The notes beneath the pieces are model-generated. The model was given only the letters and a program-made list of their open reading frames with translations, was not told the DNA's origin and searched no databases. Positions 42,122-51,783 of a stretch of DNA of 64,000 bases are shown here, piece by piece. The translations under genes and the position numbers were made by a program. Positions within the stretch are counted from its first letter, which is position 1, and the number at the start of each line of letters is the position of its first letter. Source of the DNA: Negaprion brevirostris (Eukaryota); NCBI GenBank assembly GCA_030324005.1, contig JARDVH010000001.1:136654419-136718418 (forward strand). The letters are read 5' to 3'.

Positions 42122-44147
42122 CTGTGTGCAAGTGAAATTACATATTTGACTTCCACCAACACAAAAGATTTTTGCAACTTACATTAAAGCATATCAGCAT
42201 TTCACTTACTGGGGACATTTTCAAACAAAATTTATATTATCAGCTATTTTAATGAAACTATCTATAGTAAAAAAGCAGATTAGTTGAACAACATGTGCCC
42301 CACAACGGCAATTAAATTAGTGGTGTGCTATACTACATGATCACTCCTCAGACTGAAGCAAAGAAACTTTGCCGCCAGTTCCAACTGAAAGAATTCTATC
42401 CTAATCAGAGTCTTTCATCCAAAGATAACTTCACCGACTCCAAGTAATCAAAATAAAAGTCTACATGATGGCCATGTTACAAACATCATTTAACTTAAAA
42501 AAAATCTACTGTAAATTAGCATTATCAATTATAATAGGAAAATTTTAACCATCCCAGAAAAAGAGGTGGGTTTGGGATCAGGGTTAATTCTAACCCTAAA
42601 CTACCCATTTCCAGTTTTAATATTTTATTTCAAAATATTAGAATGATCCACATTTTAATTCACTATTTAAAATTCAACCCTGGCCAGCCGTGCCACACCC
42701 CAATGTTTGCTCATTCTAATCAAAATGAAAGAAACAAAAACTGTTGGTTTAATTTTTCAACCGAGTGGAGAAACTGGGGTTATACATGGGGTCATTACAT
42801 GGGGATAGATGGAGCTTAGTGAGAATCTTTGTTTTGAGTTTATTTCTGTGAATTCAGTTAAGACCTAGCCATCAGGCAAGACTGGTTGACAAAAGCACCT
42901 AACAGACTAGCTTTGGATTTTATGTAATTATAGCTCAAAGGATAAAATAAAATTAAGTGACTGATATTCAGTACAAGAACAAAGCTGAAATGGGGAAAAA
43001 TGACTGGAAGATTTGTTTAACTAGAAGCTAAAGGAAGAAATCTACAGTAATCCTCAATAAAAGGCAGTTAATCTTGTTGCAATTGGAGTTGTGGAAGAAA
43101 TCAACTTGGTTGCATTTTGAAATTGTCTGGAAACCAAAAAGTGACTTCCAATATTTTAAGCCACTGCACAGGAGTTGCAGGAAAACCCATGTTGGAGCTG
43201 TGGAATCCAGAGTTACTGAGGTTGATAAAGAAGCTGGAGGGTCACCTAGTCAAAAGCTAATGAAAAGACACCCATGAAATTTTGTACCTTGACTAATAGC
43301 TGGAGCACTGAAGAGAAATCAGAATGAATTCTGGACAGCGGTGATATACCTTTGGGTCAATCCCTGGAAATGAATGAACCTTACAAGATTTCATAAGATA
43401 AGGGGACTCTTGAGGGGAGTTAAAAGAAACAGAACTGAATTAATAGCATAAGCTGTAATGTTAAGTTAACAGAGCTTACTTCATTTAATTCTGATATACA
43501 ATCAATTTTGTTTTTGTTTAAAACTGTGAAATCTTGTGGCATAGCTCTGTCAGTTAATTGCTGGCTGTTTGGATTTCTTCTTTAAATGTTAATGGTCTCT
43601 AACCAGATCAGAACAGTTAGTGAAGAGTAATGACTCAAGATTCGACAAACAGGGGGCACAGATGAAGGTGATTAGCAAAAGAACCAGAGACAACATGCGT
43701 GTGTTATAAAATGAGAGGTTAAGATTTAGAGCGCATTGCCAGATAGATGATGGATAAGGATTCAGCAGTAGTCTTCAGAAAGGAATTGGATAAATACTTG
43801 AAGGAGAAAACAATTATGGGAATATATAGGGAAAACTCTGAGAATAACTGAATTCCTATCGAAAGAGTCAGTACGGACTCAGTAAGTTGAATAGTCTTCT
43901 TCACTGTACTATTTATGCTTCTATGCAAAGGCTCTTTGAATTAACAGAAATATTCTTTTTCTCCAACATTTTTCATTTTTATTAAACTGATTTTTTTTTA
44001 AACTGCATTTTATATTTTATAATTGGGAGAATGCCAGGCCTGGCAGAGATACAATGTTAATTTCAAATGTCCAATTTCTCAATGCTACAATCTCACTCCC
44101 AAAATATTGAAAAATACTGTAAATCATAACCTTGAGCTGATACTTAC

Positions 44148-44210
44148 AACTGGCTCTCCCTTTTTAATTCCGAAACAAGTAACCACTCCATCATGATCTG
44201 CAATTACCAC
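44148..44210 (-). CDS. BBS7: BBS7 exon 3, VVIADHDGVVTCFGIKKGEPV
   Basis: Acceptor atttag|, donor |gtaagt; 63 nt. Confidence 0.96.
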
Positions 44211-44503
44211 CTAAATGGTCAAAGCATAAAAAAATTCAAAAAACTAAATAGTAACGAAGATGTTCAAAACAACTATATAAAAACAAACATAAAAGTTCTC
44301 GCAAAGTGCAGAAATGCTGCCATTAAGGCAGCCAGGAAGGTTAAAGTTTTGATTTTCAATAATATCACAACATACAATAAATCTACCCTTGCTGAGAAAG
44401 CTTGGTCAAGGATAGGAAATTATTTTTCTCCTCTTCTTCTTGCTTCTACACTTTTACCTGGAACTAGAAAAATAAATGATCATTTTGACAGGTAGAAATT
44501 AAC

Positions 44504-44569
44504 CTTTTGGATTGCTCTTCGTCCTGATGCAGGTAGAAGCCGCATTGTCTTTTGGGAAGTCACTCCCAC
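44504..44569 (-). CDS. BBS7: BBS7 exon 2, VGVTSQKTMRLLPASGRRAIQK
   Basis: Acceptor tcttag|, donor |gttaat; 66 nt. Confidence 0.96.
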
Positions 44570-46182
44570 CTAAGATAAAATAAAAAGAAGTTACAGCACT
44601 ATCACAATAAAGACATGTTAATTATCTAATCTATGAATCTCACCCTAGGGTGATCAAAGGAAAACAAAGTCAAACTATGGTAGTGTACTAAGAAACTTAA
44701 TTTGAAATTTAGGACAACAGTGCACTGAGTGAAGATCAAGAGGTACTACCTTGGCTTACAACACTCCACTAAACTCTCACAAGCTCAATATAGACATGGA
44801 TGTCCTGTTGCCTTATTCTAATTCACTCAAACAAAAAGAAGCATTTTTCTTAAGTGATTCCAAAGTTTTTGCATCCAGTCCAAGGGCGGAATGGTAGCAC
44901 ACTGGTTAGCACNNNNNNNNNNNNNNNNNNNNNNNNNNNNNNNNNNNNNNNNNNNNNNNNNNNNNNNNNNNNNNNNNNNNNNNNNNNNNNNNNNNNNNNN
45001 NNNNNNNNNNNNCAGCTGCTATTCTCTATTTTACCACCAGAGGGAGAGCTGTTGTTAGTATCCGCACTGGAGCAACAGCGGCAACAACAACGACATGCAT
45101 TTATATAGCACCTTTTTATGTAGCAAAGCATCCCGAGGCATTTCACGGGAGTAATTATCAAACAAAATTTGATCCCAGGCCATAACAGGAGACATTAGGT
45201 CTGACAGCCAAATATTGGTCAGAAAGGGAGGTTTTAGGGAACATCTCAAAGAGAGAGGTAAAGAGGCAGAGGGGTCCAGGAAGCTCATTCCAGCTAAAGG
45301 CACACTCTAAAATTGGAGATACTCAAGAGGTCAGGATTGGAGCAGTACAGATATCTTGGAGGGGTAGTAGGGCTGGGGGAGACGGGGAGGGCAGAGACAA
45401 CGGAGGGATGTGAAACCAAGATTGAGAATTTTAAATTCAGGGACCTTCTGGGTCAATGTAGGTCCGAGAGCACAGGAGGTGACAGGTGAATGGGAGCTGG
45501 TGTGATTTAGGATAGGGGCAGCGGTGTTTGGGATGAGTCCAAGGTAGCAGCCTGATGTACAAACATGCAAAAGAGGAGCAGGAGTCGGCCACCCAGCCCC
45601 TCGAGCCTGCTTCACCATTCAATAAGATCATGGCTGATATGTTTGTGTTGAGTTGCACATTCCTATCAATCCCCGTACCCTTAGATTCCCTCGCCTAACA
45701 AGGATTTATTTACTTCCGACTTAAAAATATTCAGCGACCGCCCCCCCCACACTTGCACCACCTTCCGAGGCAGAGAGTTCAAAGACGCCCAACTCTCCGA
45801 GAGAAAAAAAAATCCTCATCATTGTCCTGGGAGGGTGACACTAATTTTAAAACAGACCCACAAGATGAAACATCGTTTCCACATCCACCTTATCGACCAT
45901 TCAGAATGTTAAACACTTCAATCAGGTCGCCCCTCACTCTTCTAAGTTCCAGTGGAGACAAGCCCAGTCTGTCTGAGTTTTCCTCATGAGACACCCACTC
46001 ATTCCAGCTATCAATATGTTTCACTGAATGCTAAAGCATGTGACATTGATAAATCAAATCAAATCAAACCCAGTAAACCTCTTCTGAACCACTCCCAATG
46101 CATTCACATCCATCCTTAAATAAGACCAAAACTGCACACAGTATTCGAAAGGTGGTTTCACTAATGCCCTGTATATCTGAAG

Positions 46183-46387
46183 TAATAGTAAGAAGTCTCA
46201 CCGCACCAGGTTAAAGTCCAACAGGTTTATTTGGCAGCACGAGCTTTCGGAGCGTTCCTCCTTCTTCAGGTGAGTGAGGACAGAGCAGCGCTCCGAAAGC
46301 TTGTGCTGCCATATAAAGCTGTTGGACTTTAACCCGGCATTGTGTGACGCCTTACCGTGCCCACCCCAGTCCAACGCCAGCATCTCC
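46183..46387. mobile_element. Short palindromic PLE-derived insertion carrying a minimal hammerhead motif
   Basis: Same family as 12151-12281; TSD atatctgaag at 46173-46182 and 46388-46397. Confidence 0.8.
46238..46272 (-). ncRNA. Minimal type-I hammerhead ribozyme motif
   Basis: CAC-CUGAAGA-A-GGAG-GAACG-CUCC-GAAA-GC-UC-GUG: catalytic core, helix I and helix II pairing, and a palindromic AGCU in place of helix III. Confidence 0.6.
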
Positions 46388-47095
46388 ATATCTGAAGCAT
46401 AACATCCTTACTTTCATTTTCAATTCATCTCATAATTAAGTACAGCATTCCATTAGCCTCCATGATTACATGCTGCATCTGCATACTAACCTTTTGTGAC
46501 TCATGCACTAAAACACCCAGATCCCTCTGCACCCTGGATTTTGCCATTGTTCTCCAATTAAGTCTTTCTTTAAATTTTTCCTGTCAAAGTGAAAAACCTC
46601 ACACTTTCCCACATTATTCTCCATCTGGGTGATTTTTACCCACTCAGTTCACCGATTTACATCCGTCTGCAAACTCTGTGGGTGGGATTTTCCAGCTGCA
46701 CTCGCCCCGAGACCAGAAAATCCTACCTGACGTCAACGTACCTTTGCAATGGTGCTGTCCCACCCACAATGATTCCCGTGGCAGGTGAGACAGGGAAATT
46801 CTGCTCTGTATGTGTTCTTCACAACATACATTGCCACCTATCATTGTATCACTTAGTGACTGTGCCTTCACTCCCCTCATTTAAATCATTGATATAAATT
46901 GTAAAATGTTGAGTCCCAGTACAGACCCCGACAGGACCCCACTCCCCACATTCTGCCAATCAGACAAAGACCCTTTTAGACATACTCTCAGTTTTCTGCC
47001 AGCCAGCCAATCTCCCTGCACCGTGAGCCTTTTTTTTGCAATAATCAAAAAGAAACAAGTGTGGAAACACAGGAAGTAAGTTCAGTTTTCCTTAC

Positions 47096-47317
47096 CTTTC
47101 GTGTCCCCGAGTCCCAGCTGTCCGCAGTTATTTCTTCCCCAACCAAACACCGCGCCGGAGAGCGAGAGAGCGAAACTGTGTGCTCCTCCAGCAGCCAGCT
47201 GGGCTACGGGGATTCCAGCCAGCGATGTGACACATCGGGGCTTCAGCATCCAGTGGCCAATTCTGCCAAGGCCCAGCTGACCCCGAGTATTCTGTCCCCA
47301 GGCAAAGACTCGACCAT
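47096..47317 (-). other. Isolated small-HERC (HERC3/HERC4-like) RCC1-repeat exon inside BBS7 intron 1
   Basis: 222 nt, phase 1-1, open frame (D)[73 protein letters not shown]. Acceptor ctctctgtcgtttctgctaccag|, donor AAG|gtaagg. Confidence 0.9.
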
Positions 47318-47409
47318 CTGGTAGCAGAAACGACAGAGAGAAATTTGTTAACGTTACTCATTGAAAAATAAACCTCCCTGAGATTGGGCACATCTGGCTG
47401 CTTATCTCC

Positions 47410-48025
47410 TGATGTGGAGACGCTGGCATTGGACTGAGGTAAACACAGTAAGAAGTCTCACAACAGGTTTAAGTCCAACCAGTTTATTTGATAGTAATCC
47501 CACTAGCTTTCGGAAACGGTGTTCCTTTGTCAGGTGTGTAGAAGGTTCTGGTCAGAGGAAAGGTATATAAAGACACACACAGTTTACAGATTACTGATTA
47601 GGATGCGAGTCTTTACAGCTAACCTGCTATTCAGGTCTTAAAGATGCAGACAGTGTGAGTGGAACTTGGCTAGTATCAAGTTCCGCACACACGAGGACGG
47701 CCTCAACCGGGAACTGGGGTTCATGTCACGCACTATCAGTAACCCCCATGACTTGCCTGAACTTGCAACATCTCACTTACTGTCCCATCTGGACACAATA
47801 CACATCTCTTTAACCTATGCTAACGCTATCTCCACTCACACTGTCTGCATCTTTAAGACTTGAATAGCAGGTTAGCTGTAAAGACTCGCATTCTAATCAG
47901 TACTTTGTAAACTGTGTGTGACTTTATATGCCCTTCTGTGATCAGAACCTTCCACACACCCGAAAGCTTGTGGGTTTATATCAAATAAACTGGTGTTGTG
48001 AGACTTCTTACTGTTTTTAACCCCA
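47410..48025. mobile_element. Penelope-like element remnant with long inverted arms
   Basis: Arms of about 200 bp (47440-47663 and 47831-48020) are reverse complements. The centre encodes KFRTHEDGLNRELGFMS, resembling the C-terminus of a PLE GIY-YIG ORF. Confidence 0.8.
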
Positions 48026-48115
48026 CGGTGACGGAGTTAATTCTCATTTACTGGATTTAAACCGTCCGACTTATAAAACAAAAAAGCCCAGTGATGGCGG
48101 GGTCGGCCCTCCCAC

Positions 48116-48151
48116 CTGCAGGTAGTCGACGCGGTTTAAGTTTAACTCCAT
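48116..48151 (-). CDS. BBS7: BBS7 exon 1 (coding part), MELNLNRVDYLQ
   Basis: Strong Kozak GCGGCC-ATG-G; donor CAG|gtggga; 36 nt. Confidence 0.96.
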
Positions 48152-48335
48152 GGCCGCCGCGGTCTCCTGTGGAAAATCGGGCGCAGCGAGGGCGGGATCG
48201 GCGTTAAAACACCAGTAAAGTGTCAGCACCACGCACAGAACTCATGGCCGAAGCTGCTGGACACTCGGCAGGCCGAAGAGAGAGAAGGAGCCGTCAAAAC
48301 AAACCACTGGTTCCAAACCAGGCCCCGCCAGTCCC

Positions 48336-48349
48336 GTTACTAAGGAGAC
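48336..48349 (-). promoter_or_regulatory. RFX X-box in the BBS7 promoter
   Basis: GTCTCCTTAGTAAC on the minus strand, about 185 bp upstream of the ATG, fits the 14-bp X-box pattern typical of ciliary genes. Confidence 0.8.
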
Positions 48350-51328
48350 TGTAAGCGCCTCCTAACACCGCACACCATTGGTTCCGGTAACCGCACCGGC
48401 GTTTAAGCTCAGCGCCCATTGGCAGCTGGAGGAGCCAGTCTCGCTCCCCGGCTTGAGAAATCCTTTCATCTGTATAGCGCCTCTCACAACTACCAGCCCC
48501 TTCAATGTGCTTTATAACTAATCAAATGTAGTCGCTGGTATAATGTGGGAAGTATAGTAGCCAAAATATGGCAAGATTCAAGATCGAGGAAATTTGGGCG
48601 CAAATAATTTATTCTGTATAATGTTTTGCATCTTCGCCCTCTTCCCCCCCCCCCCCCCGTTATGGAGAATGCGCATCTCCTGTATTCAACGGGTTGTGAC
48701 TTTACATCTAAAATTTTTGGAGTTGAAGCCGTTATTGCATGAGTAATTGAAACGCTTCCACGATAACATTTTCTAACCTGCAGGATCTGATCTGCATAAA
48801 TTGCCTCAGACTTTAATGTTCAGAAAGAGAGGGAATATGGTTTAAATTCCACACATTCCTTCGCCACGTTGTTTAGGCTGATCTCTGTTTACTTTTGGCT
48901 GTTGTTACCTTCTGGTGTGAATGGTATAAATTTTGGTATCTGATGACAAAATTGGCAAAAATGTCAATTGAAACACTCCTTTTATGTTTCTCAGTAACAG
49001 TTCTCTAAATATGTTTGTGGTACAATTCATCTTTCTCCTGGGAAAGCAAAACGGAATCTGTATTTATTGTAATAAATTTGATGTCACTGTTCAATAATTG
49101 AAATCTGACTCCACATTGGTAACAGTGATGGTTTTTACTGAATCACAACTGAGACTAAATATTCAGAGTATTCGAGCAGCAGTTTACAAGGACAGTGGGT
49201 GCAGGGGAGGGGTAGCACCATTAACAGCTGCTCTATTCAGAGTGGCTGATCCTCACTTTCACACATTTCAAGTATTGGTCCTCACCTTCACATGCTTCTC
49301 ACTTATAGACCTAAGTAGTCGTTAGCACACGACAGCTGTTTTGGCAGTGATATCACTGGTCTCCGGACGAGATCCACTAATTTGTAAATTCCCAAACAAG
49401 ACCCCAATTTTGTTAAGCTCCGGGGTGAAAATAAATGAGCTGGCTTCCCTTCTTTATGCAACAAGTTAATTTAAATTGGGATCCCTTCCCTTCCTTTCCA
49501 AGTTCAAATGTATTTTTTTTAGATGGAGCCAATTTAACCAAGCTTTTTTGAGTCAAAGAAAGAATAAGTTTAATAGCTTATAAAACCCTGAAAACTAATA
49601 ATAATGCAATACACACACACACATCAGAACTGAACAGAGTCCANNNNNNNNNNAAAAGAGAGTGTGCAAATCAATGCTTGGCTTGACTGTGAGGCATTGA
49701 TGATAGTACACTTATGGCTTTGGTAGTTTAATAGTTTGGAGACACTATTTGCAGGGTGGCTAAAAAGCTGTCCTATTTCCTTCAGCTTGTGGCTTTCATT
49801 GAACCATGCTCACAGCAACAGGGAGAAAGAGATCCTTTGCATTGGGATCTGTCTCTAGCAATCTAGACTCACCTTGCCACTGGACCAAGATGGGTCAGGA
49901 AGAGAGAATGAAACTTATGATATACACCTTACTATAATCCAATTCACATGCAAGTCATGTTCATAATCTTTTACCAGTCATCCATCATTTATCTGTTGCA
50001 AGACCTATGGCAATGTGTGTGTAATATAGCAGCAAGTGTGGATTCACTGAAAGCTGCAGCCGTGAACCTGTACCCAGGTGGCTCAAACCATTTTTCACCA
50101 TAATAAAGAAGTGAGGGGAGGTGAGCAATGTGATCTTGAAATATAAAGAAGAGGCTAGACAAAGTTTCTTAAACATTGTCTGCTTTACCTCTTTTGCCAT
50201 GAACCATCCCATCCATAAGTTGACTTGCCTTCCTATGAGTGTCAATGATTGTGCTTAATGATGGTGCTTAAACTCCCCCTGTATGGCAACAGACAAGCAA
50301 ATCTCATTTTGTATGCTCCAACATGACCAAACCTGATGAATGCAAGGGTAAGTTTGATGATGTCCTCAAGTCCTTGAATACTACGGTGCTAAAGTCAGAT
50401 ACACTCATTAATCTTGGTGACTTCCATACAAGTGTTAATGCAGATCACCAGGAAAGGAATAATTGAAAAGAATGGGGTTAGTAGTTGTAACAACAATGTC
50501 CTCCTCTTTTTGAAGATGTATGTTGAACATTAGCTCTTGATCATCCACACAGTTTCTCGCAACAAGACATCTTGGACGTATCCCTATTCTGTGCATTGGT
50601 ACCTATTGACTATCACTAGGCAGAGGGAGAAACAGGATATGCGTGTAATGAACGCAAGTGCCATGTTGACTGGTGGAGTAACCATTATCTTATAAGCTCA
50701 AAATTAGACACCCCTTAAAGGCCCTCAGGGAAGTTGCAGAAATATCTCAAGGCTCTAACAGGCAGCCATGAAGAAATCTTTCTCAGAGAACCTTGTTTAC
50801 TAAAATTGGGCACTCATTGCATAGTGTCATAATGATGGACGAAAATCCCAAATCATGTACAGAAATATGGAACTTTAAATAAGACCTCTGGTTTTATGGC
50901 TGAGGATGTAAATTCAGTTACTGGCTGAATTGCTGGTGAGTGATACTAAGAGAGAGACAACGGAACCACACCTTTACTCCAAACAAAACCACAAAAACCA
51001 TACAGAAACAAACAGCTATCTCCTATAGAATTCATGGGAACTGATTATCATCTCAGCAGGAATGATACTCTATATGCAGTGTCCCAGAGCGGTTTGTGGG
51101 TTTTTGCCTTCCAGGAATACATAAAGACTGGGATAAAAGCCAGCTGGAAAACTTGGTCAGTGTCGACTAGTGCTGATGTATCAGCGTGACACAGGAAGAA
51201 AGACTACTGCAGATCCTTGCAAAAGTTTTATAGGTGACTCTCCCTGATTGCTAAAGTGAGTCAACTCAGAAAATCCAAAAGTGAAAAGGAAACAGGGCAG
51301 CTTCTCAGCTAAACTGCAGAATGCTGGA

Positions 51329-51783
51329 ATCATAGAACTCTACAGTGCAGAAAGAGGCCCTTCGGCCCATCAAGTCTGCACCGAACACAATCCTACTCAG
51401 GACCTACTCCCATGTTATACCCACTAATCCCTCTAACCTACGCATTCCTGGACACTAAGGGGCAATTTCTTAGCATGGCCAATCAACCNNNNNNNNNNNN
51501 NNNNNNNNNNNNNNNNNNNNNNNNNNNNNNNNNNNNNNNNNNNNNNNNNNNNNNNNNNNNNNNNNNNNNNNNNNNNNNNNNNNNNNNNTCTTAGCATGGC
51601 CAATCAACCTAACCCGCACATCTTTGGACTGTGGGAGGAAACCAGAGTACCCAGAAGAAACCCACGCAGACACGAGGAGATTGTGCAAACTCCACATAGA
51701 CAGTGATCCGAGCTGGGAATCGAACCCCGGACCCCTGGAACTGTGAAGCAGCAGAGCTAACGACTGTGCTACTGTGCCACCCG
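51329..51783 (-). mobile_element. V-SINE (HE1-like), interrupted by an assembly gap
   Basis: Same head, core and tail. Confidence 0.85.

Follow-up and report, generated by a model that had tools for sequence, protein, structure and literature searches.

The RCC1-repeat exon found in intron 1 of BBS7 in the Negaprion brevirostris assembly is an ordinary, intact exon of a small-HERC E3 ligase gene, most likely brought to this place by a chimeric contig that was joined through a repeat. The exon was detected in a window of 64,000 nucleotides (the whole stretch of DNA that was analyzed; positions without a scaffold handle refer to it). It is the sole assembled copy of residues 149-221 of a shark small HERC and not a stray copy, and it belongs to a gene at G000:C1:166.76-166.80 Mb, in which it fills these residues. 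The orphan exon is therefore probably not new biology. An earlier note on this DNA, made from the letters alone, had named a mis-join as the refutation of its proposals. A mis-join is now the best-supported reading, as judged from short contigs and repeat comparison rather than from long reads.

The exon and its parent gene

A pyrimidine tract with a terminal CAG precedes the exon (47317-47096 on the minus strand), and GTAAGG comes directly after it. The exon is read as 2 nt, 73 open codons and 1 nt, and displays no decay; re-reading of the sequence agrees with the earlier description of an intact 222-nt exon with acceptor, donor and 73 open codons. The encoded peptide matched the Pfam RCC1 (E=1.5e-20) and WD40_RLD (5.1e-18) models. 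We compared it with proteins of other sharks. The whole-peptide protein search was ranked by multi-repeat proteins, and hence a narrower query (exon residues 15-54) was used, which gave 8 matches among 114 candidates, including two orthologues: Mustelus asterias P0122 (named 'putative E3 ubiquitin-protein ligase HERC4', 1538 aa) and Heterodontus francisci P0123 (named 'probable HERC3 isoform X2', 1425 aa). The whole peptide is identical to P0122 at 69 of 73 residues (94.5%, four residue differences) and to P0123 at 58 of 73 (79.5%). The identity with the RCC1 repeats of small HERCs, proposed in the earlier note, is thus confirmed by the Pfam match and by P0122, a protein with RLD and HECT domains. 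Exon numbering is taken here to follow HERC3. At window position 47252, exon residue 22 is Trp, and Arg is found in sequencing runs X2 and X9 and in Mustelus; the Trp is a lineage-specific change in a variable loop.

A second near-identical copy of the exon was absent from the assembly in both protein (56/56 and 92/92 candidates scored) and DNA (4/4 candidates scored) searches. The next-best protein matches in the genome were paralogues at 72%, 68% and 66% identity (from the set of 56 candidates), and the next-best match of the exon-alone DNA search was also at 72% identity. This copy count applies to assembled sequence, in which a copy inside the parent gap would be invisible, and it rests on the exon-alone query; a DNA query including the Penelope-like repeat resulted in 3,429 candidates, 40 of which were scored, and was dominated by the repeat. 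When six full-length HERC proteins were used in tblastn over 564 kb around the exon (86,047 bases, or 15%, are N), zero matches were obtained outside it, as expected from its earlier characterization as an orphan within BBS7 intron 1.

The P0122 orthologue maps exon by exon to G000:C1:166,759,439-166,802,792 on the plus strand, 30 Mb from the window. The exons of this locus are colinear with P0122 at 78-100% identity (55-67% in repeat-rich blocks). Residues 123-221, 253-295, 560-618 and 1347-1538, among others, are missing there, and the HECT exons for residues 1218-1346 are present. Two gaps, of 1,396 N and 4,399 N, interrupt the locus from the exon for residues 70-122 to that for residues 222-252. 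The last base of the orphan exon together with the first two bases of the next parent exon encodes Val, as in P0122. Similar to P0122 and P0123, the next exon therefore joins in phase and the rest of the gene is colinear; unlike in these orthologues, where the peptide lies within one complete protein, the exon is here assembled 30 Mb from the rest. The search for a parent locus that had been proposed earlier thus yielded the gene, but not a parent copy of the exon, which is replaced there by gaps. For residues 123-148, 253-295 and 1347-1538, no exon of orthologue identity was detected anywhere in the assembly (92/92 and 47/47 candidates), and no exact end overlap was found between the exon contig and the edges of the parent gaps. 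A HERC5/6-like cluster at C1:160.79-160.87 Mb, in which the same exon is missing, was also considered as the parent and rejected, since P0122 maps to 166.76-166.80 Mb at much higher identity.

Repeat-induced chimeric and misplaced contigs occur in fragmented short-read assemblies. Across the 734 kb fetched from this genome, contig N50 was 3,066 bp and 18.8% of the sequence was N. Other HERC exons are misplaced in it as well. The exon for residues 556-618 of the same parent gene (59/63 identical) is located at G000:C59:114,481,843-114,482,031, on a 4-kb contig between two 100-N gaps, and a HERC3 exon (100% identical to P0119 residues 235-265) is missing from the HERC3 locus and sits at G000:C140:24,030,479-24,032,201. 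The end of the latter contig and the border of the HERC3 gap share 45 identical bp, correctly oriented; these bases belong to a repeat, and terminal matches of 25-55 bp also arise by chance. Gaps of 100 N border both of these misplaced exons. An overlap of flanks of at least 20 bp was observed at 10 of 73 such gaps and is not discriminating. The orphan exon resembles repeat-induced chimeras of fragmented short-read assemblies in the join through a very high-copy repeat, the donor gap, the single-copy depth and the misplacement of exons of the same family. The way in which the assembly was made is deduced here from its gap pattern only.

As for the host gene, all 19 exons of BBS7 are present and conserved, as judged by mapping of shark BBS7 proteins. 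The HERC exon lies in sense orientation about 800 bp from BBS7 exon 1, and a single contig without N (45013-49643) carries both. Simple misplacement of a contig was therefore rejected, and the error must lie inside the contig. Splicing of the exon (phase 1-1) into BBS7 mRNA, whose intron is of phase 0, would lead to a stop after 24 codons, which sits badly with a complete and conserved BBS7. Downstream of BBS7, minus-strand exons of cyclin A2 were observed some 57-79 kb to the left of where the window starts. As cyclin A2 is the usual vertebrate neighbour of BBS7, the BBS7 region itself appears plausibly placed. The length of the sequence between the exon and the 100-N gap downstream of it fits the 4,399-N parent gap, and no join is indicated within this sequence because the hairpin that it contains has its own 10-bp target-site duplication. 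The earlier statement that repeats flank the exon holds in that Penelope-like hairpins lie on both sides; the remaining downstream flank, which has high depth, is presumably LINE-derived. Near the contig end, positions 45032-45050 form a putative CTCF-like site. A literature search on BBS7, HERC and shark returned nothing relevant, its single match being an unrelated clinical paper.

Table 1. Coordinates in the window of the HERC exon, the neighbouring BBS7 exons and the repeats and gap around them
Feature	Position	Strand	Remarks
HERC RCC1-repeat exon	47096..47317	minus	222 nt, phase 1-1; corresponds to residues 149-221 of Mustelus asterias P0122
Penelope-like hairpin, exon-side arm (arm R) with tail of ~35 nt	47407..47663		Distal part closest to the arm at the parent-gap edge
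Conserved arm stretch, putatively the likeliest place of the chimeric join	47615..47663		1/49 differences from arm L
BBS7-side arm and body fragment (arm L, short end)	47677..48019		Likely a separate insertion in BBS7 intron 1
Second self-contained Penelope-like hairpin	about 46183..46392		Own 10-bp target-site duplication
BBS7 coding exon 1	48116..48151	minus	36 nt, phase-0 donor
BBS7 exon 2	44504..44569	minus	Mapped with shark BBS7 protein
Sequence downstream of the exon, up to the 100-N gap	45013..47095	minus	Likely HERC intron
100-N gap without flank overlap	44913..45012		Likely a second, unsupported join back into BBS7 intron 1

The Penelope-like repeat and the sequencing runs

The HERC exon is separated from BBS7 exon 1 by a high-copy hairpin (47407-48019). 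The hairpin family is characterized by inverted arms, a tail of ~31-37 nt on one arm and target-site duplications of 9-16 bp, which are the structural features of a Penelope-like element, and the short body fragment of the hairpin presumably corresponds to the Penelope endonuclease end. The family also matches the Penelope structure as given in PMC3846280. A target-site duplication was detectable in 22 of 33 pairs of a tailed and a short end, the window pair being among the 11 others. In the fetched loci, all 22 duplication-confirmed insertions consist of one tailed and one short end; none of them has two tailed ends, and neither of the two tail-plus-tail pairs has a duplication. For this genome, the rule can serve as a convenient check on chimeric joins.

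An arm of the same family (C1:166767786-166767986) borders the 4,399-N parent gap on its left side, and the contig there breaks off within this arm, at a position homologous to 47614. This parent-edge arm shares 9 of 17 minority variants with arm R (the next copy of 88 shares 6), and one variant of these two arms is common to no other of 30 copies; arm L shares 3 of 11. With 9 differences over 167 positions, the parent-edge arm is the closest to arm R of 30 long copies, compared to 12/140 for arm L, and the two arms form the second-closest of 918 pairs. Their outer flanks match at 9 of 10 positions in the manner of a target-site duplication, a level reached by 7 of 3,000 random flanks, and those of arm L and arm R match at 6 of 8 positions at best. 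Over 47538-47614, arm R differs from the parent-edge arm at 3/76 and from arm L at 9/76 positions, and the following stretch is nearly that of arm L (Table 1). This suggests a sequence switch in arm R near 47615, with a heterogeneity test that was not significant (p=0.19).

The pairing of the arms speaks against this reading. Arm L and arm R represent the usual short-plus-tail form and are divergent at 13/189 positions, within the natural range of hairpins, whereas arm R and the parent-edge arm are both tailed. When the true partner of arm L was sought by a sequence pattern, 20 matches were obtained versus 13 in the control; 3 of the 20 have the element tail and none is convincing. No outer target-site duplication was found for the repeat-exon-repeat unit (ends 46187/48019). 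Capture of the exon by Penelope is not supported, because the 10-bp duplication at the left hairpin is that hairpin's own and none is seen for the outer pair. The repeat evidence ties the upstream flank of the exon to the HERC gap, but by itself it does not tell an assembly switch from a real recombination.

A total of 24 public sequencing runs were listed, and four of them (X1, X2, X9 and X11) were compared over 43500-51488. All sampled words were present in X1 alone, which is possibly the source sample. In this run, the exon (46984-47439, no differences) and BBS7 exon 1 (47991-48641) fall on two different unique contigs, and 47439-47991 is not bridged by any of the 32 pieces listed (of about 320,000). 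The depth of the repeat between the exon and BBS7 exon 1 is about 10^5. Exon depth versus that of other listed contigs was 5.0 vs 5.36 in X1, 4.45 vs 7.12 in X2 and 21.3 vs 21.68 in X9, and is thus single-copy in three of the four runs; in X11 it was 7.95 vs 4.21 for its neighbours, about 2x, in a contig that includes repeat sequence. Among the pieces listed, positions 47047, 47252 and 47343 are each covered by a single contig in X2 and X9, as are 47047 and 47252 in X11. An X9 contig of 640 nt spans the exon and continues with 221 letters unlike the window, and some contigs extend for about 220 letters beyond position 45013. In X1, an extra depth of 7.6 at 47252 is without explanation.

A probable assembly chimera and competing explanations

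We infer that the join is an artefact lying near 47615-47663, and that 45013-47095 represents HERC intron. The assembler would have passed from the repeat copy in the BBS7 intron into the copy in the HERC intron just upstream of the HERC exon, and would then have continued across the exon and some 2 kb of HERC intron; the position of the resulting contig would have been set by BBS7 exon 1, with the 100-N gap linking it to the remainder of the intron. In the living shark, splicing would put the exon between those for HERC residues 123-148 and 222-252, where it would contribute roughly one and a half RCC1 blades to the substrate-binding propeller. Several observations count against an artefact: the contig is N-free, no listed piece (32 of about 320,000) shows the true neighbour, there is no exact end overlap, and arm R pairs tail to tail with the parent-edge arm while arm L and arm R have the usual form. 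The p value of 0.19 for the switch signal, the ~2x depth in X11 and the extra depth of 7.6 in X1 also count against it.

It is unlikely that the hybrid hairpin is real, that is, that a 30-Mb inversion fused BBS7 exon 1 to the HERC exon and disrupted both genes on one chromosome or, less likely, that the exon was copied in as a BBS7 poison exon. The inversion, by ectopic recombination between two Penelope-like copies in opposite chromosomal orientation, is itself quite improbable. The window would show one of its breakpoints, for which this animal might be heterozygous. The same hybrid hairpin, an N-free join and single-copy depth are all expected from such an inversion, and the orientations fit it, as BBS7 is on the minus strand at 136.7 Mb and HERC on the plus strand at 166.8 Mb of one scaffold. 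However, such an event would break both genes, and BBS7 is complete and conserved, the HERC exons are intact and a BBS7-HERC fusion is out of frame. The reciprocal junction was found neither at the edges of the parent gaps nor as the partner of arm L, and the misplacement of other HERC exons onto other scaffolds of the same assembly further argues against it. If the join were true, it would be a rare documented case of a megabase inversion mediated by Penelope, and the shark genes affected would be a ciliopathy gene and a likely immune ligase.

A recent duplication or transduction, which the earlier note had put forward, would have carried the exon and its intron flanks into BBS7 intron 1 through Penelope and left the original hidden in the 4,399-N gap. 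This is highly improbable, given the single-copy depth in X1, X2 and X9, the one contig over 47047, 47252 and 47343 (X2, X9) or over 47047 and 47252 (X11), and the absence of a second copy. Hairpins do lie on both sides of the exon, but no target-site duplication is shared by the outer ends 46187/48019, and the left hairpin is framed by one of its own; moreover, a strong exon on the sense strand would poison BBS7. On the other hand, other parent exons are absent from the whole assembly, so the original could be hidden too, and the depths in X11 and at one site in X1 are in its favour. Copying of genes with their introns by Penelope has been described in a rotifer: in Adineta vaga, host sequence with introns likewise lies between Penelope terminal repeats (PMC3846280). 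A target-site duplication encloses the rotifer unit, and an additional copy results, neither of which is seen for the shark exon. Two further proposals, an exon of a HERC gene interleaved with BBS7 and a relic of a former, rearranged HERC locus, are extremely improbable. The N share (15%) of the 564 kb could hide exons; nevertheless, six queries detected no other HERC exon there, the neighbouring exons of the matching gene, 30 Mb away, are at 166.76-166.80 Mb, and a relic is at odds with an exon that has not decayed. The assembly chimera that we favour serves as a warning that intact orphan exons arise from mis-joins even inside gap-free contigs of this assembly, and other orphan exons here therefore need to be checked against parent-gene gaps first.

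The parent HERC and its heptad insert

Both P0122 and P0123 are complete proteins with one RLD and one HECT domain. In a HECT tree of 38 rows, they group (100/99) with paralogues from turtle, bird and teleost, and fall outside HERC3, HERC4 and mammalian HERC5/6; their source names, HERC4 and HERC3, respectively, do not fit this tree. The parent gene was also considered as a HERC3 orthologue, in line with the likeness to HERC3 given in the earlier note. This assignment was dropped, as the exon peptide is 71% identical to shark HERC3 compared to 94.5% for P0122, and the HECT clades are separate. True HERC3 is located at C1:160.94-161.0 Mb. The parent group is likely the non-mammalian HERC7 subfamily, based on a 38-row tree without a labelled HERC7 sequence. 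The HERC7 subfamily (of Li et al.) is placed in elephant shark and other non-mammals by PMC10003058 and PMC11277259, and salmon HERC7/9 is placed beside HERC3 by PMC12234341. Like these non-mammalian small HERCs, the parent proteins have a single RLD plus HECT. Unlike them, the shark gene is 6 Mb from the HERC3 cluster rather than adjoining it, and contains an insert of ~350 residues, made of Thr/Gly/Asn/Asp heptads, before the HECT domain.

The heptad insert lies between the spacer and the HECT domain (~745-1110 in P0122 and ~715-1050 in P0123) and was observed in the Negaprion genome at G000:C1:166,796,121-166,796,753 and on C84362; 27 and 10 copies of the heptad motif were counted. It is common to Mustelus, Heterodontus and this genome, and had zero Pfam matches. 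This insert is probably more interesting than the orphan exon itself, and the exon helps to rebuild the gene model of the shark small HERC that carries it.

Besides the parent gene, a tandem HERC5/6/7-like cluster was observed at G000:C1:160.79-160.92 Mb, head-to-head with HERC3, in which some RCC1 exons are present in three copies and in jumbled order. Further exons of the HERC family were seen on C1125, C2852, C5793 and C9495, as well as at C132:96.59 Mb and C110:50.5 Mb.
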